In this document: positions 1,367 through 10,707 of the stretch, one piece after another
How positions within the stretch are numbered: position 1 is the first letter of the stretch
Layout of the letters: the number at the start of each line of letters is the position of its first letter
Assembly: GCA_016926735.1 (NCBI GenBank)
Contig: JAFGOA010000233.1
Span: forward strand, 1-11,423
Source: Promethearchaeota archaeon
GTDB lineage: Archaea; Asgardarchaeota; Lokiarchaeia; Sigyniarchaeales; SOKP01
Direction of reading: 5' to 3'
Length of the DNA stretch: 11,423 nt
The notes under the pieces: model-generated
Seen by the model: only the letters and a program-made list of their open reading frames with translations
What the model was told of the DNA's origin: nothing
Databases searched by the model: none
Position numbers and translations under genes: made by a program

Positions 1367-2326
1367 ATGATAAAAAATAAAACTATTCTTATAACAGGAG
1401 GAGCGGGATTTATTGGTTCTAATCTGGCTCAAACATTACTAAAGGAAGATAATTATATTTTGATAATCGATAATTTTAATGATTTTTATCCTGGAAAAAA
1501 AGAACAATTAGAGACTATACTTGAACCATATAAACATAAAATAGAGTACAATATTATAAATGGAGATCTTGTGAATAAATCTATATTTCAAAAAATTGAT
1601 ATGGAGGTGGATTACATCTTTCATTTAGCGGCTCAACCCGGTGTAAGATACTCTATTAATAATATAGAACAAGTTTCCCATAATAATATGTTTAGTACAA
1701 TTAAAATTTATGAATATGCTTTAGAAAAAAACGTAAAGAAAGTATTATATGCTTCTTCTTCTTCTGTCTATGGTAATCCTTTATATACACCTGTGGATGA
1801 AGATCATCCTAAAAATCCAATTTCACCTTATGCAATTTCAAAATGGATCGGTGAAATATATGCAGATTATTATTATCGAGAGTTAAATTTACCTATAAGC
1901 ACTTTAAGATTTTATACTGTTTATGGACCTTTTGGAAGACCTGATATGGCAATAAGGAAATTTTTTGACTTAATTCTCCATAATAAAAAGTTAACTATTT
2001 TTGGAGATGGAAATCAACTCAGAGATTTCACGTATGTGAGTGATATTATTAATGGTTTGATTTTATCCTGTGAAAATAAGAAAGCTGAGGGAGAGACTTT
2101 TAATTTAGGATCTTCAAATCCAATAACTGTTAATGAATTAATAGATAAAATATATAAAATTACTGAGAAGAACAGAAATGTTGAGTATATTGAAAAACAA
2201 AAAGGAGATATAGAAGTCACTTTTTCTAACATCGAAAAAGCCCAGAGAATCTTAGGCTTTAAACCTAAGTTTGATATAGATGTAGGTTTAGAAAAGACAT
2301 ATAATTGGCAATTAAATAATTCTTAA
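1367..2326 (+). CDS. NAD-dependent nucleotide-sugar epimerase/dehydratase (extended SDR), UDP-glucuronate 4-epimerase-like
   Basis: TGGAGFIG Rossmann motif, HLAAQPGVRYS, ASSSSVYG, catalytic YAISK (YxxxK). RFYTVYGPFGRPDMA is typical of the UDP-GlcA 4-epimerase (CapI/WbnF) subgroup. Confidence 0.92.
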   Translation: MIKNKTILITGGAGFIGSNLAQTLLKEDNYILIIDNFNDFYPGKKEQLETILEPYKHKIEYNIINGDLVNKSIFQKIDMEVDYIFHLAAQPGVRYSINNIEQVSHNNMFSTIKIYEYALEKNVKKVLYASSSSVYGNPLYTPVDEDHPKNPISPYAISKWIGEIYADYYYRELNLPISTLRFYTVYGPFGRPDMAIRKFFDLILHNKKLTIFGDGNQLRDFTYVSDIINGLILSCENKKAEGETFNLGSSNPITVNELIDKIYKITEKNRNVEYIEKQKGDIEVTFSNIEKAQRILGFKPKFDIDVGLEKTYNWQLNNS

Positions 2327-2369
2327 ATGACTTCAATAATTAAAATAAAACTAAAGAGAAGATGATATT

Positions 2370-3332
2370 ATGAATTTCCAAAATAAAAGAGTTGTTGTTA
2401 CTGGAGTTGCTGGTTTTATAGGTAGTAATCTTGCAGATAAATTATTAGAATTAGGAGCGGAGGTCATTGGAATTGATAATCTTCTCACAGGAAGAAAAGA
2501 AAATTTAGCCCTAGCTTTAAATAATACTAATTTTAAATTTTTTCAGGGAGATATAAGAGATTTAGACTTTCTTTTAGAGATATTTAAAGATATCGATATA
2601 ATTTTTCATCAAGCAGCTTTCACAAGTGTACCTCAATCAATTTTAATGCCTAAAACATGTAATGATATTAATGTTGATGGTATTTTAAACATACTTAATG
2701 TAGCCAGAAAAAGAGATATTGAAAATATTGTATCTGCTTCAAGTGCTGCGGTTTATGGAGATGATCAAACACTACCTAAAAAAGAAGATATGTTATGTAC
2801 TCCAATCTCTCCATATGGGGTCTCTAAGTTAGCTGGTGAAATGTATATGCAATCATATTATCACAGTTATGGATTAAAGACAAAATCCTTACGATATTTT
2901 AACGTATTTGGTCCAAAGCAGAGAGATTCTGCATATAGTGGTGTAATTGCTATTTGGTTTGGGAATGTTGTTCGAAATGAAGATGTATTAGTCTATGGAG
3001 ATGGAATGCAAACAAGAGATTTTATTTATATAAAGGATATAGTTCATGCTAATTTATTGGCTTCAGAAAGCAAGGTTTGGGGTGAAGTATTTAATATTGG
3101 ATCTGGAATCCCAATTAATTTAAATACATTAGCAGAACTTATAATAAAAATAACAAATAAAGCAAATTTAAAAATTAAATATAAAATGCAAAGAAATGGT
3201 GATATACTACATAGTTATTGCGATAATAATAAAGCAAAAGAAATCCTTAAGTTTATACCAACTTATAATCTAGAAGAAGGATTAAAAAATTATTATAAAT
3301 ATTTATTGGATAATAAAATATCGCTAATATAG
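2370..3332 (+). CDS. NAD-dependent nucleotide-sugar epimerase (extended SDR), WbpP/VipB-like UDP-GlcNAc(A) 4-epimerase
   Basis: TGVAGFIG, HQAAFTSVPQS, ASSAAVYG, YGVSK, LRYFNVFGPKQ...YSGVI, GDGMQTRDF. Confidence 0.92.
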   Translation: MNFQNKRVVVTGVAGFIGSNLADKLLELGAEVIGIDNLLTGRKENLALALNNTNFKFFQGDIRDLDFLLEIFKDIDIIFHQAAFTSVPQSILMPKTCNDINVDGILNILNVARKRDIENIVSASSAAVYGDDQTLPKKEDMLCTPISPYGVSKLAGEMYMQSYYHSYGLKTKSLRYFNVFGPKQRDSAYSGVIAIWFGNVVRNEDVLVYGDGMQTRDFIYIKDIVHANLLASESKVWGEVFNIGSGIPINLNTLAELIIKITNKANLKIKYKMQRNGDILHSYCDNNKAKEILKFIPTYNLEEGLKNYYKYLLDNKISLI

Positions 3333-3340
3333 ATAAAAAA

Positions 3341-5590
3341 ATGAAAGATATAACTATTAAATATAAAATAAATAATATTATTATTTCGATTTATAATAAT
3401 CGAATTATATTAAGCTTTCTTATCTCAATACTTTCGTTTAGTATGATAATACTACAAATATTTCATGTGAATATCAGTAGTATAATATATAATTTTTATG
3501 CTTTATTTACGCTCCTATTTATCCCTTCTTATCCAGTTTTTTTTTTAATATTGAAAAGATGGAAAATTAACATATTAGAGAAATTTACATTAACAATTAT
3601 TTCTAATATATCATTTTATATTTTAATAGGATATTTTATTTCTTATACAGGATTAGCAATAACATCATTTTACTATATTACAATAACAATATTAAGCTTT
3701 TTAATTATTTTTTTATATTCAATAGCTAAATTAGAAAAATCTAATTATCAAGGTTTTTTATTTATTGAAAAGAAATCTAAAGAATACACAGATTTTTGTA
3801 ATACTTTTTCATTATTGAATTATATAAAGACAAAAATTTCATTAAATTTTTTTCTACTTTTAGTTTTTCTTATGCTTATTTGCTTTTTTAATTTATTTTC
3901 ATCCAGTATTTTTCTGGGAACCGATTCTTGGCTTCATGTTTCGATTATTCGATTTATTACTGAGAAAAATATGATTCCTCACAACGAATACTTCGGTGCT
4001 ATGGGATTACATATATATAGTGCTGTTTTTCATTTTTTTTCAGGAATAGACATTTTATTGATTCCTAAGTTTTACGTTTTTTATACATTCCCCATCTCTG
4101 CTATGATATTATATATCATATTAAAAAGAATTTTTAACAATCAAAATCTAGCAATTTTTGGAGTATTTATATTAGAATTCTCTTCTTTAGGTTTTGGAAA
4201 TATTATGCATTTATTCTGGCCAGAGAGTCTCGCAGTTTTACAGTTATTAACAATCTTTTTTATATTATATCTTAGAATTAAAGAGTTTACAGAACTAAAA
4301 ACAATAAAAAAAGAAAATATTTTTAAAAATCTTGTTATATCATATACGCTAATTACAATATTATTCCTAAGCGCTTTTATTATCCATTCATTAGTATCTC
4401 TTATTCTATTAGTTTCATATTTATGGATCTATTTAATCTTTTTTTTAAAAGATTATAGAAGGGGATTTGATTTTATAATTTTGTGTTTTTTAGTTGGTAT
4501 TATTTTTATTTTTTATTATCTCAAAATAGGAGTAGGCCATTTGTTTGTATTCTCATATTTTCTGACTCTTCCCGTTTTTTATTATTTTCTATTATTGTTA
4601 GCTTTAATTGTGGTATTATTTCCAATAATAAGGGCGTTTCATAATACTATAAAATTTGGTCAAGTTGAATTTTTTGAATTAGATTCAAGAGATTTTAAAA
4701 AATATTTGGATTTTGAAAATAAAATTATAATTCCATTATCTGTAATCATTGTATCATTTTTGTCAGTTCTATTCATGCTTGGTAATATTTTTTCACTAAA
4801 CCTAGATATTGTAAGCGCAATAACGTCCATAGAAATGTTTATTTTTGCCTTTTTTGCTATTTGGGGTATTATTATTTTTCAAAAAATATCGAAAGGAAAA
4901 ATTTTAATGATTTGGATGGTGGGCTTGGGATTATTGATATTTGCTGCATTAGTCTATGATATGTTATTTATTGTTAAAGGATTTTGGTTGAGAATAATCC
5001 ATCTTAGCTCTCCTTCCATAATAATAGGATTTATATCATATATTTACAAATTAGTTAAAATAAAAGCATTTGAATATAAAAAATTCTCAATAATCGTATC
5101 AATTATAATCTTCTTTTCATTAATATCTGCCTTCTCATATGATAATACTGTTTTTAGACATTTTAGTCTTGAAAGGAGAGAATTAAATACCGTTTATTGG
5201 TATAGTGAATACACATCTAATAAAGGATTAGTGGCAATCGAATTTGGTTGGCATTATGGTATTATGTATTATGATTATCCATATGATCAAAACAATGAAT
5301 CATTAGGATTAGATTCTGTAGCTTATATCAAATATGTAAATTCAAGTATTTTAAAACCAGAAGAACATATATCTAATAACGTAAATATACTACAGCAATT
5401 GAAAAATCGTTATAGTACTGATTTTTATATCTTCTTAACAGATTACTATTTGGTATATGGAGGATGGACCTTTTATGATAGTTTAAATCAAACGCAGATT
5501 CAACAATATTATAATCTTCCTTACTTGAATAGAATTTGTTCATCTAAAAGTATTGATGGATTAATAGAACCAATATATTGGGTAATATAA
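3341..5590 (+). CDS. Polytopic membrane protein, putative GT-C-fold glycosyltransferase
   Basis: 749 aa with well over a dozen hydrophobic segments. A GTDSWLH motif (3917-3937) sits just after a TM helix, where GT-C enzymes carry their catalytic acidic residue. There is a soluble C-terminal domain. It lies 8 nt downstream of the epimerase and upstream of a DPM1-like GT2. The CDS is certain; the function is inferred. Confidence 0.65.
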   Translation: MKDITIKYKINNIIISIYNNRIILSFLISILSFSMIILQIFHVNISSIIYNFYALFTLLFIPSYPVFFLILKRWKINILEKFTLTIISNISFYILIGYFISYTGLAITSFYYITITILSFLIIFLYSIAKLEKSNYQGFLFIEKKSKEYTDFCNTFSLLNYIKTKISLNFFLLLVFLMLICFFNLFSSSIFLGTDSWLHVSIIRFITEKNMIPHNEYFGAMGLHIYSAVFHFFSGIDILLIPKFYVFYTFPISAMILYIILKRIFNNQNLAIFGVFILEFSSLGFGNIMHLFWPESLAVLQLLTIFFILYLRIKEFTELKTIKKENIFKNLVISYTLITILFLSAFIIHSLVSLILLVSYLWIYLIFFLKDYRRGFDFIILCFLVGIIFIFYYLKIGVGHLFVFSYFLTLPVFYYFLLLLALIVVLFPIIRAFHNTIKFGQVEFFELDSRDFKKYLDFENKIIIPLSVIIVSFLSVLFMLGNIFSLNLDIVSAITSIEMFIFAFFAIWGIIIFQKISKGKILMIWMVGLGLLIFAALVYDMLFIVKGFWLRIIHLSSPSIIIGFISYIYKLVKIKAFEYKKFSIIVSIIIFFSLISAFSYDNTVFRHFSLERRELNTVYWYSEYTSNKGLVAIEFGWHYGIMYYDYPYDQNNESLGLDSVAYIKYVNSSILKPEEHISNNVNILQQLKNRYSTDFYIFLTDYYLVYGGWTFYDSLNQTQIQQYYNLPYLNRICSSKSIDGLIEPIYWVI

Positions 5591-5817
5591 TTTATTTATT
5601 TTCCTACTTTAAGGGTATTTTATCATTATTTGGAATATATTAACTCTTTCAAATATAATTGGATTTTTTTTTTTTAACACATTTTTATAAGGAAAGATTG
5701 ATATAAATAAAATACAATATTTATATTACTAAATCAAATCTATTGATTCTATTAATTAAAATAATTTTAATTTCCAATTAAGTGTATTGATTCAAATTTA
5801 ACTTGGCATTATAATCT

Positions 5818-6588
5818 ATGACATTAGATAAAAATCTAGTAGAAATTAACACAAAAAGATTTATTTCAAAGAGCAATTCTATAATCCGGAAGGAAAATCG
5901 ATTAATATCTATAGTTATTCCTTTATATAATGAAGAAAAATCAATAAAATATGTTTTATTTAAAATTCCTCATGATGAAAACTATGAAATTTTAGTAGTT
6001 GACGATGGATCAACTGATGATAGTATAAAAAAGGTTCAAGAAGTTAGAGACAAGCGAATAAGAATTATCAAACATAAAAAAAATCAAGGATACGGGAAAG
6101 CGATATTAACAGGTTTCAAATACTCAAGAGGAGATATTATAGTTACACTTGATTCTGATGGTCAACATAATCCAGAAGAAATTTCAAGAATAATTAGACC
6201 AATAAAATTCAAGAAGGCAGATATTATAATAGGATCAAGATATTTAGGAAAAAGCAACTACAAGGTTCCTTTATATGTTAGAACGGGTGAGATGGTAATA
6301 AGTTATATCTTGTGGATTTTCTTTGGTAATAAAATAAATAATAATCAGAGTGGATTTAGAGCATTTAATAAAAAAAGTATCGAATGTATAAAAGCTACAA
6401 AAGATACGGGAATGGGTTTTACTACAGAAATATTATTTAGATCTAGTCAAGAAAATCTTAGAATATATGAAATTCCGATAACAGTTAATCCAAGAATGCA
6501 TGGTGTATCTCGCGTTCGCTTAATTAAATTGATTAAATCAATTTTACTTTGTGTAGCTTATTATTTTTTTAAAAAAAGAAAAACATAA
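5818..6588 (+). CDS. Glycosyltransferase family 2, dolichol/polyprenol-phosphate glycosyltransferase (DPM1-like)
   Basis: SIVIPLYNEE, VVDDGSTD, NQGYGKA, TLDSDGQHNPEEI (DxD), IIGSRY, QSGFRAF. Confidence 0.92.
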   Translation: MTLDKNLVEINTKRFISKSNSIIRKENRLISIVIPLYNEEKSIKYVLFKIPHDENYEILVVDDGSTDDSIKKVQEVRDKRIRIIKHKKNQGYGKAILTGFKYSRGDIIVTLDSDGQHNPEEISRIIRPIKFKKADIIIGSRYLGKSNYKVPLYVRTGEMVISYILWIFFGNKINNNQSGFRAFNKKSIECIKATKDTGMGFTTEILFRSSQENLRIYEIPITVNPRMHGVSRVRLIKLIKSILLCVAYYFFKKRKT

Positions 6589-6700: not shown

Positions 6701-7456
6701 TTAATTCAGTTTTTTTTTTATTAGAGAATTTGTATCCCCTTCAATTTTTATTAATTTTGGTATTATTCCTGCTTTGCCGACTTTATTTTCTCGATTAATT
6801 ATAACTCCTTTTACTCCAATAATATCTTGAGCAATATCCAGACCCTTGTTAATTGATTTTTCTATGTCTTCTCCTTTTACAACATTTGCAACTCTAGTAG
6901 CGGCAGCATCAGCTAAAGTTGCATTCTCAGCAAATATAGTTACAGCATCAGCATCTCCAAAACTAAAAGCATGCCCAATAGTTGCTGAACTGGTTCCAAT
7001 ACCTATAGGACAATCACTCTTTTCTATTAAAAACCCTATATTTAAATTTAAGTCATTAAGACCTGTATATAATCCAACTGTCATTGATTGAATAGAATTT
7101 ATCGCAATTTCTCCACCATTTTCTACAAGTGCAATTTTAGCAGGTTTGTAATCAGTTAATCCCTCCTGTTGCATTACTTCGACCATAATATCTGCAAATG
7201 CTCCAGCAACTGAAGCCATTGGACCGACATCACACAAATAACTTGCTTTCATCATAATTTTAATTATTTGATCATTACTATCGACCTTAATAGGAGAAAA
7301 GGAAGTTAAAAATTCCTTATTTTTATAAAGAAATTTCTCTAATATATTTCTTTGATAGAAGAATGATTCTTTTGCTCTTTGTATTGCAGAATTTGATTCT
7401 GAAATAATTGTTACATCTGATTCTTTTTCTATAAAATGATGCTTAAAAGTTTCCAT
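6701..7456 (-). CDS. UPF0280 family protein (ApbE superfamily)
   Basis: VGPMASVAGAFAD, VENGGEIA, GIGTSSATIGHAFSFGDADAVTIFAENATLADAAATRVAN are the conserved UPF0280 blocks. The length of 251 aa fits the family. Confidence 0.88.
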   Translation of the reverse strand: METFKHHFIEKESDVTIISESNSAIQRAKESFFYQRNILEKFLYKNKEFLTSFSPIKVDSNDQIIKIMMKASYLCDVGPMASVAGAFADIMVEVMQQEGLTDYKPAKIALVENGGEIAINSIQSMTVGLYTGLNDLNLNIGFLIEKSDCPIGIGTSSATIGHAFSFGDADAVTIFAENATLADAAATRVANVVKGEDIEKSINKGLDIAQDIIGVKGVIINRENKVGKAGIIPKLIKIEGDTNSLIKKKLN

Positions 7457-7557: not shown

Positions 7558-8049
7558 ATGATTGATTTAAACTATGATGAAGTTATTTCTCATTTGCAAA
7601 AAGAATTAAATGCTGAGTGTGCGATTTCAAATAAATATGGTGTAATTCTTGGATCAGCAATAAAAGAGCTCCCAAAAAACAAAATAATCCCTCAAAATGT
7701 ATTAGATTTAATTGCAAATAGACAAGGCATTGCTAGTGTACTTAATCTTGATCAAATTACATCTTTTGCTCTAGAAGCTAAGGAAAATAATTATTTATTC
7801 ACATTTTCTAAGGATTTTATTTTAATATCTAAATTAGGCTTAGATGTTAACTTGGCTAAGTTTATGCCAAGTATCAGATTATTCCTGAAGAATCTAGATA
7901 CAAAAATAAAAAAACCAGAACAAATTGATTTTTCCAAATTCGATTTTTCAAAAGAGATAAGTCAAATTAAAGATAGCTTAGAGAAAGAAAAAATAAATAC
8001 CGAAAAATATTCAATTGTTAAAACTCTTATAAAATATATGTCTGATTAA
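7558..8049 (+). CDS. Roadblock/LAMTOR/MglB-like protein with C-terminal extension
   Basis: The sequence pattern is helix, beta hairpin (ECAISNKYGVILGS), helix, three strands (ITSFALEA/NYLFTF/FILISK), helix (NLAKFMPSIRLFLKNL), which matches the roadblock topology. It lies directly upstream of a small GTPase gene. The fold was inferred by eye. Confidence 0.6.
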   Translation: MIDLNYDEVISHLQKELNAECAISNKYGVILGSAIKELPKNKIIPQNVLDLIANRQGIASVLNLDQITSFALEAKENNYLFTFSKDFILISKLGLDVNLAKFMPSIRLFLKNLDTKIKKPEQIDFSKFDFSKEISQIKDSLEKEKINTEKYSIVKTLIKYMSD

Positions 8050-8050
8050 T

Positions 8051-8056
8051 GGTGAT
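8051..8056 (+). promoter_or_regulatory. Archaeal Shine-Dalgarno (GGTGAT) for the longin-GTPase gene
   Basis: GGTGAT lies 5 nt before the in-frame ATT (8062) at which the longin beta1 strand begins. Confidence 0.6.
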
Positions 8057-8127
8057 ACAAAATTTTAAGACAAGTATACATTTATAAAGAATCAGAATTA
8101 CTCTACCATAGACATTTTGGTAAAGTA

Positions 8128-9816
8128 ATGAAAGAAGAAGCTTTTAATACAATTTTAGATGATATATCTAAAGAACTCTCAAATAATACTAGCGAAAAAG
8201 TAATTTATCATGATTATTATAAATTTAGAATATCATATCTTTTCGATACCAATCATAAGGTTCTATTCCTATTTATTACCGGATTAACAGATAATTTTGA
8301 TAGCATTCAAAAAGAATTAAAAAAATGCAAAAAGGAATTTATAAATCTGTTTGGAGATATTATTCAACATAAATTTGATACTAAAACCTTTGAGGTTTTT
8401 GATCCTACTGTAGATGCAATTCATAGGAGTCTTAGACCAAAAATATCTTTAATAGGATTCTCAGGGGTAGGAAAAACAACAATAACACGATTAATAAAAG
8501 CAGAAGAGATTCCTATGCAACATGTTCCAACAATAACGGGAGATATCGCAACAATTAAAATAGGAAAATTACATTTTCATCTGTGGGATTTTGCTGGTCA
8601 GGAGCAATTTAGTTATTTATGGTCTAATTTTATAAAAGGAAGTGATGCTGCTTTGCTTATAACAGATTCTTCAATGGAAAATGTTGAAAAAAGTAAATTT
8701 TTCTTAGATTTAATAAGGGAACAAGCGCCTCATGCTCACTCAGCTGTTATTGCAAATAAACAAGATCTTCCAAAATCTATGACTCCCGAACAAATTGAAG
8801 GAGAATTAGGATTAAAAGCCTATTCTATGGTTGCAATAGAAGAAGATAATCGAGACAAAATGATTAAAATTATTGCAGATGTTTTAGAAATGAACACATC
8901 AATATCTCCACTATTAAAACCCCTCTTAGAAAGAGACAATAAAATTAGAGAGGCACAAATGGCATTAGAAAATGCTCAATTTGATCATGCAATTGAATTG
9001 TTTGAAAAAATTAGTGATTTGTGCATTGATTTAGGTGATGATAGCCTTAGTAAAGAATTTTATGAAAAAGCACAGAAAATTAATGCAATGCTAACAAAAG
9101 CTAGTAAAACTAAGGAGGTTGTAAAAGAGCAACCTGTTGAGGTTGAAGATACAAAACTCAAAGAAGCAACAATTAAAAAAGAGAAAAAAGTAAAAATCGA
9201 AGAAAATCTAAAACCAATGGTTAAACCATTGCCAAATTCAAAGAGTGAATCTTTAGAAAAAGATACAACATCTGAAATGATAAATGTTGAAGATAATCAG
9301 ATAAAGAACGATATACCTCTCGATGATAATATAAAAGGATTGGATATAAATCCAGAAGATTTTATGGTGAAAGAGCGTCCCAAACAAGTTTTAAGTGTTC
9401 CTAAAGATGCAAAGAATAAATTGAGGACTTCTTCATACGGACATGTGATGAATCCTACAGAAACTTCAGCTAAAGATAAAAAGGTTTCAGAAGATAAAGT
9501 ATCTGTTGCCCCAACTATAAATGATTCTGATACAATAGATAATAAAATAGAAAACTTAGAAGAAATTAAAGAAGAAGATGAAACTCTCGTTTCTCCAGAA
9601 TTGAAAGAAGATAGAAAAAGAAATCTGGAAAAAGACTTGATGGATCTTAGGGTAAAAAAAGCACAAATTTCAAAAATGGAATTGGATTTTGAGATAAAAG
9701 AATTATCTGGTGAAATAACTACAGAAGAACTCAATGAGAAAAAACAAAGAATTGAAGAAATAAAAAAAGATATTAATAAGCAAATTGAGGAACTTGAAAA
9801 ACTTATTAAAGTATAA
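8128..9816 (+). CDS. Multidomain Ras-superfamily small GTPase (Arf/Rag-like): N-terminal longin domain, GTPase, TPR/MIT-like helices, low-complexity linker, C-terminal coiled coil; true start probably about 8062
   Basis: G1 GFSGVGKT (8455-8478), G2 HVPTI, G3 WDFAGQ, G4 NKQD, degenerate G5 SMVA. The N-terminal YKFRISYLFD..HKVLFLFITGLTD....IQKELKKCKKEFINLF pattern is longin-like. Confidence 0.9.
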   Translation: MKEEAFNTILDDISKELSNNTSEKVIYHDYYKFRISYLFDTNHKVLFLFITGLTDNFDSIQKELKKCKKEFINLFGDIIQHKFDTKTFEVFDPTVDAIHRSLRPKISLIGFSGVGKTTITRLIKAEEIPMQHVPTITGDIATIKIGKLHFHLWDFAGQEQFSYLWSNFIKGSDAALLITDSSMENVEKSKFFLDLIREQAPHAHSAVIANKQDLPKSMTPEQIEGELGLKAYSMVAIEEDNRDKMIKIIADVLEMNTSISPLLKPLLERDNKIREAQMALENAQFDHAIELFEKISDLCIDLGDDSLSKEFYEKAQKINAMLTKASKTKEVVKEQPVEVEDTKLKEATIKKEKKVKIEENLKPMVKPLPNSKSESLEKDTTSEMINVEDNQIKNDIPLDDNIKGLDINPEDFMVKERPKQVLSVPKDAKNKLRTSSYGHVMNPTETSAKDKKVSEDKVSVAPTINDSDTIDNKIENLEEIKEEDETLVSPELKEDRKRNLEKDLMDLRVKKAQISKMELDFEIKELSGEITTEELNEKKQRIEEIKKDINKQIEELEKLIKV

Positions 9817-9834: not shown

Positions 9835-10707
9835 TCAGAGTATATTTAATAAATATTTATCGGGAACTTTTGCTTCTCCAATTATTATGTCTTTTTTATT
9901 ACCATGATAATCTGAACCTCCTGATTTTATTAATTTATAGTCATTAGCAATTTTATTAAAGTATTCTGGTAACGATTTTAAAGCCCATTCTGCTTTATTT
10001 GTACCAAAATAGGGTCGATTTTTATCATATGTGTATTGTATTTCAATTCCTTTAATACCTGCTTGAATACATAACTGAATGAATTTTTTTTTATTAACAA
10101 CATTATATATCCCGGGATGAGCTAATATTGGAATACCTCCAGTATTACTAATTAGTTCTATTGATTCTTCAAGAGTAAATTCAAATTCACGATCAACATA
10201 TGCTTTTCCACCTAAACTTATCATCTTAAAAAGTTCGTTTTTTGTTTTATTTTTTACTTTTGTTGGATTATTCTTTATCAATACATCCACAATATGAGGA
10301 CGACCAATAGAAGAAGATTTAGCTATGTTTTTTACTTCTTCAAATGAGATATCATATCCAAATTCTTCATTTAATCTTTTACAGATTTCCTTTTTTTGAT
10401 TCTGTCTTCCTTCTTTTTGTAATTTTATCTTTTTATTTAATATGTTTGCATTATGATCAATATTTAGTCCAATAATATGTACATCTTTTATATCTCTTTT
10501 AAGATCATGTTTAATGGATATTTCAATCCCAGAGATAACAATAATTTTCTTATCTTCACCATATTGAAGAAATTCTTTTATTCCATCGATAGTATCATGG
10601 TCTGTGAGAGCAATAGCTTTTAATTTCTTTTCTGAAGCAAGATCAATAATATAAGATGGAGAATCTATTCCGTCGGAAGCTTCAGAATGTAAATGGAGAT
10701 CTATCAT
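9835..10707 (-). CDS. PHP-domain metal-dependent phosphoesterase (TrpH/YciV-like)
   Basis: DLHLHSEASDG, ALTDHDT, GIEIS, VHIIG, GRPHI, LAHPG, GGSDYHG. Confidence 0.93.
   Translation of the reverse strand: MIDLHLHSEASDGIDSPSYIIDLASEKKLKAIALTDHDTIDGIKEFLQYGEDKKIIVISGIEISIKHDLKRDIKDVHIIGLNIDHNANILNKKIKLQKEGRQNQKKEICKRLNEEFGYDISFEEVKNIAKSSSIGRPHIVDVLIKNNPTKVKNKTKNELFKMISLGGKAYVDREFEFTLEESIELISNTGGIPILAHPGIYNVVNKKKFIQLCIQAGIKGIEIQYTYDKNRPYFGTNKAEWALKSLPEYFNKIANDYKLIKSGGSDYHGNKKDIIIGEAKVPDKYLLNIL

Follow-up and report, generated by a model that had tools for sequence, protein, structure and literature searches.

The DNA studied here, referred to below as the window, is an entire 11,423-base contig (JAFGOA010000233.1, our C61) from the genome of a Promethearchaeota archaeon (3.88 Mb, 99% complete, 21-32% G+C). 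Positions 7558-9816 are filled by two open reading frames (ORFs) on the + strand, gene A (7558-8049, 163 amino acids, aa) and gene B, which spans 8128-9816 and encodes 562 aa when read from its first ATG. Both are genuine genes rather than chance ORFs, as the gene A product has 97 homologues (E<=0.001, identity 51-98%) and the N-terminal 270 aa of the gene B product have 1117. On its predicted structure, gene A encodes a roadblock protein, while gene B encodes a longin domain fused to an Arf-like GTPase, and the two genes stay together across three families of one archaeal order. We lean, without great confidence, towards reading the pair as an operon, conserved in Loki-type Asgard archaea, whose two genes form a self-contained small-GTPase switch of the MglA/MglB type. 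An earlier note, written from the DNA letters alone, had described two co-oriented genes, the second with intact G motifs and WDFAGQ, and had pointed to Asgard archaea as rich in such domains; the orientation, the Asgard (Loki-type) origin and the motifs, which are invariant or nearly so among homologues, are all borne out.

The gene A product could not be classified by sequence models. It matched nothing in Pfam at E<=0.01 and no roadblock family at E<=1, and NCBIfam likewise returned nothing significant; the weak Pfam matches that did appear were to a CodY GAF-like family (0.026) and to TetR_C_19 (0.056). All of the 97 homologues lack a Pfam domain, and those named by their source are called hypothetical, except for one that carries the JGI name 'midasin'. 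Among PDB sequences, the best match was the MK-D1 roadblock 7yh1 at an E-value of 0.16, and no solved orthologue was found. Membership of gene A in the roadblock family thus rests on fold, not on sequence. An AlphaFold2 (AF2) model built from 47 sequences has a mean predicted local distance difference test score (pLDDT) of 67, with core blocks at 66-87, and presents the alpha-beta-beta-alpha-beta-beta-beta-alpha topology of the long form of the roadblock/LC7 fold (helices at residues 6-17, 46-61 and 99-116, strands at 20-25, 29-33, 69-73, 78-83 and 87-93). When this model was compared with the PDB using Foldseek, 68 matches were obtained at E<=0.001. The top match was MglB from a complex with MglA (6h5b_C, E 1.9e-5), and further leaders included three MK-D1 roadblocks and one Thorarchaeote roadblock, LAMTOR subunits and dynein LC7, with the solved Asgard roadblocks 9jue, 7yh1 and 7f8m found among the matches. 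In VIA, an independent all-against-all structural search, roadblock proteins took all of ranks 1-6 (Z 11.6-12.8, with 113-120 residues aligned), followed lower down by a Rag C-terminal domain/LAMTOR entry at Z 11.0. Judged from its model, the gene A product is a divergent roadblock fold that is invisible to sequence models, in agreement with the fold that had been proposed for the 163-aa protein. Residues 1-117 form the core, beyond which lies a conserved C-terminal tail that includes FSxFDFSKE and KYSI(V/I)K..K(Y/H)(I/M)S. This tail (residues 118-163) is poorly modelled, yet its block identity is 0.65-0.78, and F125, F130, Y151 and L157 are invariant.

When its start is taken as the ATT at 8062, for which the evidence is given below, gene B spans 8062-9816 and encodes 584 aa (the numbering used here) with the conserved N-terminus ILRQVYIYK.... 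Its model has an overall pLDDT of 63.5. Together with alignments, the model divides the product into a longin domain, an Arf-like GTPase domain (G domain), TPR-like helices, a disordered linker with a conserved motif and a C-terminal hairpin. The five-part architecture suggested earlier is therefore a fair description, as is that of a longin fused to the N-terminus of a small GTPase that carries the catalytic Gln. The longin domain (residues 1-125, 8062-8436) is modelled as beta-beta-alpha-beta-beta-beta-alpha-alpha (strands 2-9 and 12-20, helix 25-41, strands 48-51, 55-62 and 67-74, helices 79-97 and 107-124). This longin topology, without an N-terminal helix, is obtained only with the corrected start. 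VIA matched the domain to synbindin (2zmv_A, Z 14.1 over 121 aa), Sec22 (3egd_C, Z 13.7 over 122 aa) and VAMP7 (4afi_B, Z 13.7 over 118 aa) and, lower, to sedlin (2j3w_A, Z 12.8), the TRAPP core (Z 12.6) and SRX (5ck3_A, Z 11.8 over 122 aa), with each match spanning residues 1-120 to 1-127. In Pfam, the longin gave sub-threshold matches only, to SRP-alpha_N for 4 of 35 members and to SRX for 3 of 35, and a profile made from the longin alignment yielded chance-level matches only when compared with PDB sequences. In longins that belong to GTPase-activating proteins (GAPs), a GP motif lies in or just before strand beta2, adjoining an arginine finger (PMC12290439). We considered a longin of this type, such as those of FLCN, NPRL2 and SMCR8/C9orf72, and rejected it, as the beta1-beta2 loop contains no GP (consensus ILRQVYIYKGxELLYYRHFGK). 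Arg3 and Arg17 of the longin are conserved.

The G domain (residues 126-274, 8437-8883) contains G1 as GFSGVGKT (residues 132-139, 8455-8478), switch I as PTITGD (156-161, 8527-8544), G3 as WDFAGQ with the catalytic Gln (175-180, 8584-8601), G4 as NKQD (232-235, 8755-8766) and G5 as YSMVA (254-258, 8821-8835). In an alignment of 40 sequences, G1-G5 and the catalytic Gln are invariant or nearly so. The best Pfam match is Arf (E 3.1e-20, 72.8 bits with a cut-off of 22.3), followed by Roc (60 bits), Ras (49.7 bits) and Gtr1_RagA (22.3 bits with a cut-off of 22.0). The domain matches Arl1 and Arf1 at E-values of about 1e-16, and no gap interrupts the alignment between the beginning of switch I (PTI) and the end of switch II, which corresponds to an interswitch of Arf length. 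Both structural searches likewise put Arf structures at the top (E 3e-9 in Foldseek, Z 15.1 in VIA). By every measure, then, the G domain is Arf-like; the protein as a whole is nonetheless not a canonical Arf, because the 125-residue longin replaces the N-terminal amphipathic, often myristoylated, helix. Beyond the G domain, residues 285-352 (8914-9117) form a helical domain with an invariant LGDDSL, modelled as three helices (285-303, 307-324 and 327-352) that include one TPR-like hairpin; in Pfam it reached TPR_8 at an E-value of 5.5e-5 and 23.5 bits, under the cut-off of 25.7. The linker that follows (residues 353-512, 9118-9597) is rich in K, E, D and P, is predicted to be disordered (pLDDT below 50 over most of 350-514) and differs in length among homologues. 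Within it lies a conserved 40-aa motif, GLxLNPEDFMVKxRPKxVxxVPKDAKxKLKTSxYxHVxNP (residues 426-465, 9337-9456). The product ends in a coiled-coil-like helical hairpin (residues 513-583, 9598-9813; helices 513-549 and 554-583, pLDDT 84-89) with the conserved sequence LxDLKIKKAxISKMxLDFxMKELxGEIT. Neither the linker nor the C-terminal hairpin matched a Pfam family significantly, the C-terminal parts showed no roadblock family, and a search of the ESM Atlas with residues 285-584 gave no usable match.

To follow the pair across genomes, species-representative genomes were scanned with the roadblock alignment, which gave 101 relatives, from which the best 80 loci were kept. Four of the 80 were set aside because they have no more than 200 nt of 3' sequence. 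At 73 of the 76 testable loci, a gene B ortholog lies directly 3' of gene A on the same strand, 12-53 nt past its stop. All eight more distant loci, taken from three families that we denote f1-f3, keep the pair as well. In total, the genes are adjacent and co-oriented at 81 of 84 testable loci, and this adjacency persists down to 27-34% identity of the roadblock protein; the pair thus proved conserved, as the earlier note had expected. In a sample of 400 genomes of the phylum, the roadblock family was present in 124, with 112 of the 134 f1 genomes, the single f2 genome and 10 of the 14 f3 genomes carrying it, all of these families belonging to the same order as the window's genome; f3 includes the closed single-contig genomes G135, G138 and G143. 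At E<=1e-5, none of 250 genomes from 30 other families contained it. Six pair-bearing records (L020, L028, L031, L042, L062 and L078) carry the submitter labels Thor-, Hermod-, Hod- or Odinarchaeota, labels that seem at odds with a roadblock family confined to three families of one order; four of these records (L028, L031, L062 and L078) nest among Promethearchaeota/Promethearchaeia records in our tree. In the window, the pair is flanked by a PRK04334/ApbE-like protein gene upstream (6701-7456) and by a PHP-domain phosphoesterase gene downstream (9835-10707). As both of these are on the - strand, genes A and B stand alone as a unit.

The linkage is specific to one GTPase orthogroup. Nearly every one of the 124 carrier genomes has just one copy of gene A. 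The window's genome has 41 GTPase matches and four longin-GTPase paralogues of gene B (52, 45, 44 and 26% identity; 351-476 aa in length), all of which start with ATG, have no roadblock gene upstream and lack the long tail. In a phylogenetic tree, which is the outcome of a quick maximum-likelihood search only, 35 linked or secondarily split orthologues are parted from all six paralogues included by one branch (SH-aLRT 93).

The ATG-started ORF of gene B appears to be truncated. Many homologues have about 22 more N-terminal residues (...LRQVYIYKxxxLLYYRHFGKALK), and the window encodes these residues in frame at 8062-8127, right behind TAA-TGG-TGA-TAC-AAA. The TGA of this string (8053-8055), which lies inside GGTGAT, is an in-frame stop shortly before gene B. 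No stop interrupts the frame from 8056 onwards, and the translation ILRQVYIYKESELLYHRHFGKV (8062-8127) agrees with the N-terminus that is conserved among homologues. Across 73 loci, the codon corresponding to 8062 is ATT in 49 cases, ATA in 17 and ATG in 7, and no ATG, GTG or TTG is found between the upstream in-frame stop and this conserved first codon in 62 of 72 loci. A Shine-Dalgarno-like GGTGAT (8051-8056) ends 5 nt before the ATT, and its GGTGA (8051-8055 in the window) precedes the conserved codon in 61 of 73 loci, at -11 in 60 of them and at -10 in one. On the general consensus, GGTGA would pair with the 3' end of 16S rRNA; the assembly of the window's genome lacks the 16S gene, and one of three relatives gave model positions 4-828 only. 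The 22 residues correspond to the first longin hairpin, such that a start at ATG 8128 would remove beta1-beta2, and residues 2-20 of the 584-aa form are modelled as two strands with a block pLDDT of 81-85. Taking together the homologous N-terminal residues, the conserved ATT/ATA/ATG codon and the spacing of GGTGA, we place the start of gene B, most likely, at ATT 8062 behind GGTGAT rather than at ATG 8128. The earlier statement that there is essentially no gap between the genes thus holds for the ATT, from which the gap is 12 nt, and fails for the ATG, from which it is 78 nt. In families f2 and f3, the same position is occupied by ATG or GTG, and one f1 genus has ACG; at the sole f2 locus, the gap measures 33 nt. 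Genes A and B share a frame in the window, with TAA-TGG-TGA between them, and frames differ at other loci, where gaps are 12-53 nt. A read-through fusion of the two in-frame ORFs was also considered and rejected, as the homologues of gene A occur as 163-aa proteins on their own and the distance between the genes is often not a whole number of codons.

Similar starts seem to be used elsewhere in the window's genome (G000). ATT and ATA, and also ATC and ACG, occur in apparent start position behind GGTGA at other genes, for example at C91:10847, C133:14713 and C147:21470. Sites of the form GGTGA-N6-codon that open an ORF of at least 150 codons number 34, with ATT at nine of these, ATG at six, ATA, TTG and AAA at four each and ATC at two. 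ATT is 4.6-fold more frequent at such sites of long ORFs than at those before short frames. In eight of the nine ATT cases, the first canonical start lies 13-61 codons further in, and one case is a Rab-like GTPase that would lose its P-loop if read from the first ATG. In the open-access text that we searched, no report of AUU/AUA starts in Asgard archaea was found.

The closest parallel among known systems is that of MglA and MglB of Myxococcus xanthus and Thermus thermophilus, where a roadblock-fold gene likewise adjoins a co-oriented small-GTPase gene in a conserved arrangement. MglB, a roadblock dimer, is the GAP of MglA (PMC3199381, PMC10933270); it is also the best Foldseek and the second-best VIA match of gene A, and both proteins have a C-terminal extension past the roadblock core. 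The present pair differs from MglA/MglB in that the roadblock gene comes first, the G domain is Arf-like, a longin in cis and a 300-aa tail are present and the roadblock protein is not recognized by Pfam. Longin domains fused to GTPases have precedents in Asgard archaea. Five were reported fused to lokiarchaeal Arf-like GTPases in Lokiarchaeum (PMC4917890 Box 1, citing its reference 23), 26 of 74 GTPases of MK-D1 are combined with roadblock or longin domains (PMC10933270), and longin N-termini have been noted in Asgard Arfs (PMC11914678). The longin-Arf-like and longin-Rag-like fusions of Lokiarchaeum and MK-D1 share the domain order of gene B, with the longin followed by an Arf/Rag-like G domain; in the accessible portions of these accounts, we did not find the tail, the roadblock neighbour or the non-AUG start described, and their supplementary tables may list the protein. 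As a rule, the GTPase genes of MK-D1 do not share operons with genes for roadblock, longin or TRAPPC3 proteins (PMC10933270). A preprint on Asgard diversity places three roadblock/longin families and two GTPase families within the Asgard core and reports a different operon, in which a LAMTOR1-like roadblock is encoded together with a Rab-like GTPase and a DENN protein (10.1101/2020.10.19.343400). For the gene A-gene B operon itself, we found no description in open-access text, and supplementary tables may list the pair. Longin-Arf fusions and roadblock-GTPase operons are thus each already known, and it is the conserved operon, its Pfam-invisible roadblock partner and the non-AUG start that we did not find in print. 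The novelty claimed in the earlier note was therefore overstated with respect to the fusion, which is in print (PMC4917890, PMC10933270, PMC11914678).

The same note had also called the pair Rag/Ragulator-like, a comparison that fits poorly. As in the Rag/Ragulator system, roadblock-fold proteins are found with a small GTPase, and LAMTOR and Rag C-terminal-domain chains are among the gene A matches. The G domain, however, touches Gtr1_RagA of Pfam only at the cut-off (22.3 vs 22.0 bits), with Arf far higher at 72.8 bits. The possibility that the gene B product is itself a Rag was rejected, as it has no C-terminal roadblock domain, the heterodimerisation domain of Rags, and carries helices, a linker and a hairpin instead. 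We know of no LAMTOR1-like wrapper for the gene A-gene B system. The best matches of the G domain in both sequence and structure are eukaryotic Arf/Arl proteins and the Asgard ArfR (GerdArfR1, PDB 8oun/8oum), with which it has WDxxGQ and NKQD in common; gene B differs from these in its 125-aa longin, found in place of the N-terminal amphipathic helix, and in its long C-terminal tail. Two further PDB entries belong to this context, namely 8yqk, the roadblock domain of a 'Roadblock-Longin protein', and 9m28, a 'monomeric Rag-like small GTPase from Asgard Lokiarchaeota (LokiRagM)'. No paper on LokiRagM was found in the open-access literature.

What we observe directly are the two folds, the motifs, the conserved adjacency, the linkage to one orthogroup and the conserved non-AUG codon. 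If the pair does form an MglA/MglB-type switch, the roadblock protein, dimeric like other roadblocks, would bind the G domain and set its nucleotide state, as a GAP and/or by helping exchange, as MglB does for MglA. The longin would take the place of the Arf N-terminal membrane helix, and would be repositioned through the Arf-type interswitch when GTP binds. Downstream partners or effectors may be recruited or oligomerised by the 40-aa linear motif, which is conserved, and by the C-terminal hairpin. In family f1, the weak AUU/AUA start behind GGTGA, near the stop of gene A, could couple translation of gene B to that of gene A and would keep the amount of GTPase below that of the roadblock protein. 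The wording of the earlier note, in which the longin is the regulator in cis and the roadblock protein the partner in trans, is to be taken as inference only. A prediction of the 1:1 complex between residues 1-352 of the gene B product and the roadblock protein gave an ipSAE of 0.00 in both runs, made without controls, and counts neither way. No public RNA run was listed as carrying the sequence, and two metatranscriptome runs of the same study contained almost none of its words.

That the genes are co-transcribed, that their products bind, which way regulation runs, what the tail does and what the start codon means are our inferences from these loci. Several considerations weigh against an MglA/MglB-type switch and should be kept in mind. 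Confidence in the roadblock model is moderate, with only one of five AF2 models above 50 pLDDT (mean 67), and its structural margin is modest, as GAF domains appear from Z 10.9, within about 2 Z units of the roadblock matches. The VIA score of the G domain is 15.1 for Arf1 compared with 12.4 for MglA (5ymx_A), and as the domain appears to be Arf-like rather than MglA-like, the mechanism of MglB may not transfer. The 41 small-GTPase matches of the genome offer other proteins that the roadblock protein could serve. The start codon may also be a habit of the lineage rather than a regulatory device of this operon, since ATT/ATA starts behind GGTGA seem to be present at other genes. At five f3 loci, gene B starts with ATG or GTG after a gap of 105-163 nt, and in this family it may have its own promoter. 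Lastly, the genes are non-adjacent at three of the 84 loci (L016, L023 and L034), where both are kept, in one genome some 20 kb apart on the same contig; tight linkage is therefore not obligatory. The split orthologues of gene B retain an ATT or ATA start, and the PHP gene is still found downstream of the three copies that have downstream sequence, while a fourth copy is the first of two tandem copies in one genome, with the second copy downstream. The roadblock gene at the split locus L023 keeps its upstream neighbours. As neighbours are kept on both sides, the split is secondary.

In the main rival explanation, the roadblock protein, rather than working as a homodimeric GAP, would pair side by side with the longin in cis, forming a heterodimeric platform that scaffolds, localises or performs exchange for the G domain. 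Such a platform would resemble LAMTOR2/3, the Rag C-terminal domains and the longin pairs of Mon1-Ccz1 and TRAPP, and we consider it unlikely. That a single conserved operon codes for both domains agrees with it, as does the fact that the roadblock model matched LAMTOR and Rag C-terminal-domain chains. Moreover, the paralogues that have no roadblock partner also have no long tail, so that the partner tracks a distinct subtype. Those same paralogues, however, show that the longin-GTPase type can exist without such a partner, and when the longin and roadblock families were compared by hhalign, the probability was 0.1%, meaning that no sequence relation was detected. At its broadest, this explanation would have the Arf-type G domain dock onto a platform formed by roadblock and cis longin, as a prokaryotic minimal form of the eukaryotic platforms in Ragulator-Rag, SRalpha-SRbeta, TRAPP and Mon1-Ccz1, with the AUU/AUA start setting the ratio of the chains; to this form, too, we would assign no more than a small chance.

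Two lesser rivals remain to be weighed. One is co-expression without direct regulation, in which the two proteins serve the same process, for example at the membrane or the cytoskeleton, the roadblock protein regulates other GTPases or partners and the longin alone handles the G domain in cis. The 41 small-GTPase matches and the three genomes that keep both genes unlinked are compatible with this, as is the general location of MK-D1 GTPase genes outside roadblock/longin operons (PMC10933270), from which it appears that regulators are usually encoded apart. Adjacency at 81 of 84 loci in three families is, nonetheless, hard to explain without a functional tie, and gene A, present as a single copy, is tied to just one orthogroup; we regard co-expression alone as rather improbable. 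The other is a module akin to the signal recognition particle (SRP) receptor (SR), in which an SRX-type longin binds the GTP state of the Arf-like G domain, as a cis version of SRalpha(SRX)-SRbeta, and the roadblock protein is an added regulator. SRbeta is a member of the Arf/Sar group, and the SR, too, pairs an Arf-like G domain with a domain of longin type. The longin aligns with the SRX of the SRbeta-GTP/SRX complex (5ck3_A, Z 11.8, rmsd 3.3, 122 of 135 residues), and the sole longin-type Pfam families to appear were, as given above, SRP-alpha_N, with a lowest E-value of 0.0083, and SRX, with one of 0.02. All of these Pfam matches are, however, far under the curated cut-offs, and the likeness to trafficking longins is stronger, with synbindin, Sec22, VAMP7 and sedlin outscoring SRX (Z 12.8-14.1 vs 11.8). 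In addition, gene B, unlike SRalpha and SRbeta, holds both parts in cis, its product has no SRP-receptor NG domain and no membrane anchor and no SRbeta chain is among the sequence and structure matches listed. This explanation thus seems to us very improbable.

Asgard genomes encode dozens of small GTPases, roadblock and longin proteins, and which of these regulates which is mostly unknown, because the genes are usually scattered. Indeed, such scattering makes the matching of GTPases to their GAPs or guanine nucleotide exchange factors hard to predict (PMC10933270), and operon analysis of Loki GTPases was named as an open question (PMC4917890). The present locus is a rare case in which a GTPase switch is paired in the genome with its likely regulator, and one GTPase orthogroup tied to one roadblock protein across a whole order offers a concrete pair for biochemistry and structure determination. 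If the roadblock-longin platform were to prove true, this order would hold a one-operon, ancestor-like form of a eukaryotic GTPase-regulator design; as the pair is also found in closed genomes of the order, this can be tested directly. The start codon has a practical side. Many database entries of the gene B family begin further in, at an ATG, GTG or TTG, and therefore miss the first longin hairpin, with the result that models or constructs derived from them would be truncated. The conserved AUU/AUA start, together with the hints at other genes, bears on gene calling in these archaea.

Some further observations concern the relatives of gene B. In the split genomes, a gene of about 331-339 aa (...MQIYSTHEYSGEKGTITL...) lies some 460-500 nt before the GTPase orthologue (L097 3035-4030, - strand; L098 19-1038; L099 18-1034). 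A look-alike of 359 aa (...MQIYASHEYGGEGG...; L085 2164-3243) adjoins the paralogue on C119 of the window's genome. Judged by eye, these genes may be another companion of longin-GTPases. Locus L023 (7717-9783, - strand) also encodes a 688-aa paralogue with an ATA start, which, judged by eye, appears to join within a single polypeptide a longin, a GTPase, a segment resembling a roadblock and a second Rab-like GTPase. Its gene converges on the roadblock gene in this genome, one of those with a split pair.

As for the remainder of the window, an Rfam search gave no match. A glycosylation-type cluster lies upstream of the pair (1367-6588) and comprises two NAD-dependent epimerase/dehydratases, a 749-aa multi-pass membrane protein without a Pfam match and a GT2 glycosyltransferase, after which comes the ApbE-like gene on the - strand (6701-7456). 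At L023 (2821-5891), a similar membrane protein of 761 aa and an ApbE-like gene are also found before the roadblock gene, so the upstream neighbourhood of the roadblock gene is conserved too. At the end of the contig, a frame-broken TnpB-type gene on the - strand (2-1051; ORF pieces 683-1051, 305-571 and 2-292) runs off the sequence, and its pieces contain an HTH_OrfB_IS605 domain (E 7e-10) and a Cas12f1-like TNB domain (E 2.5e-6).

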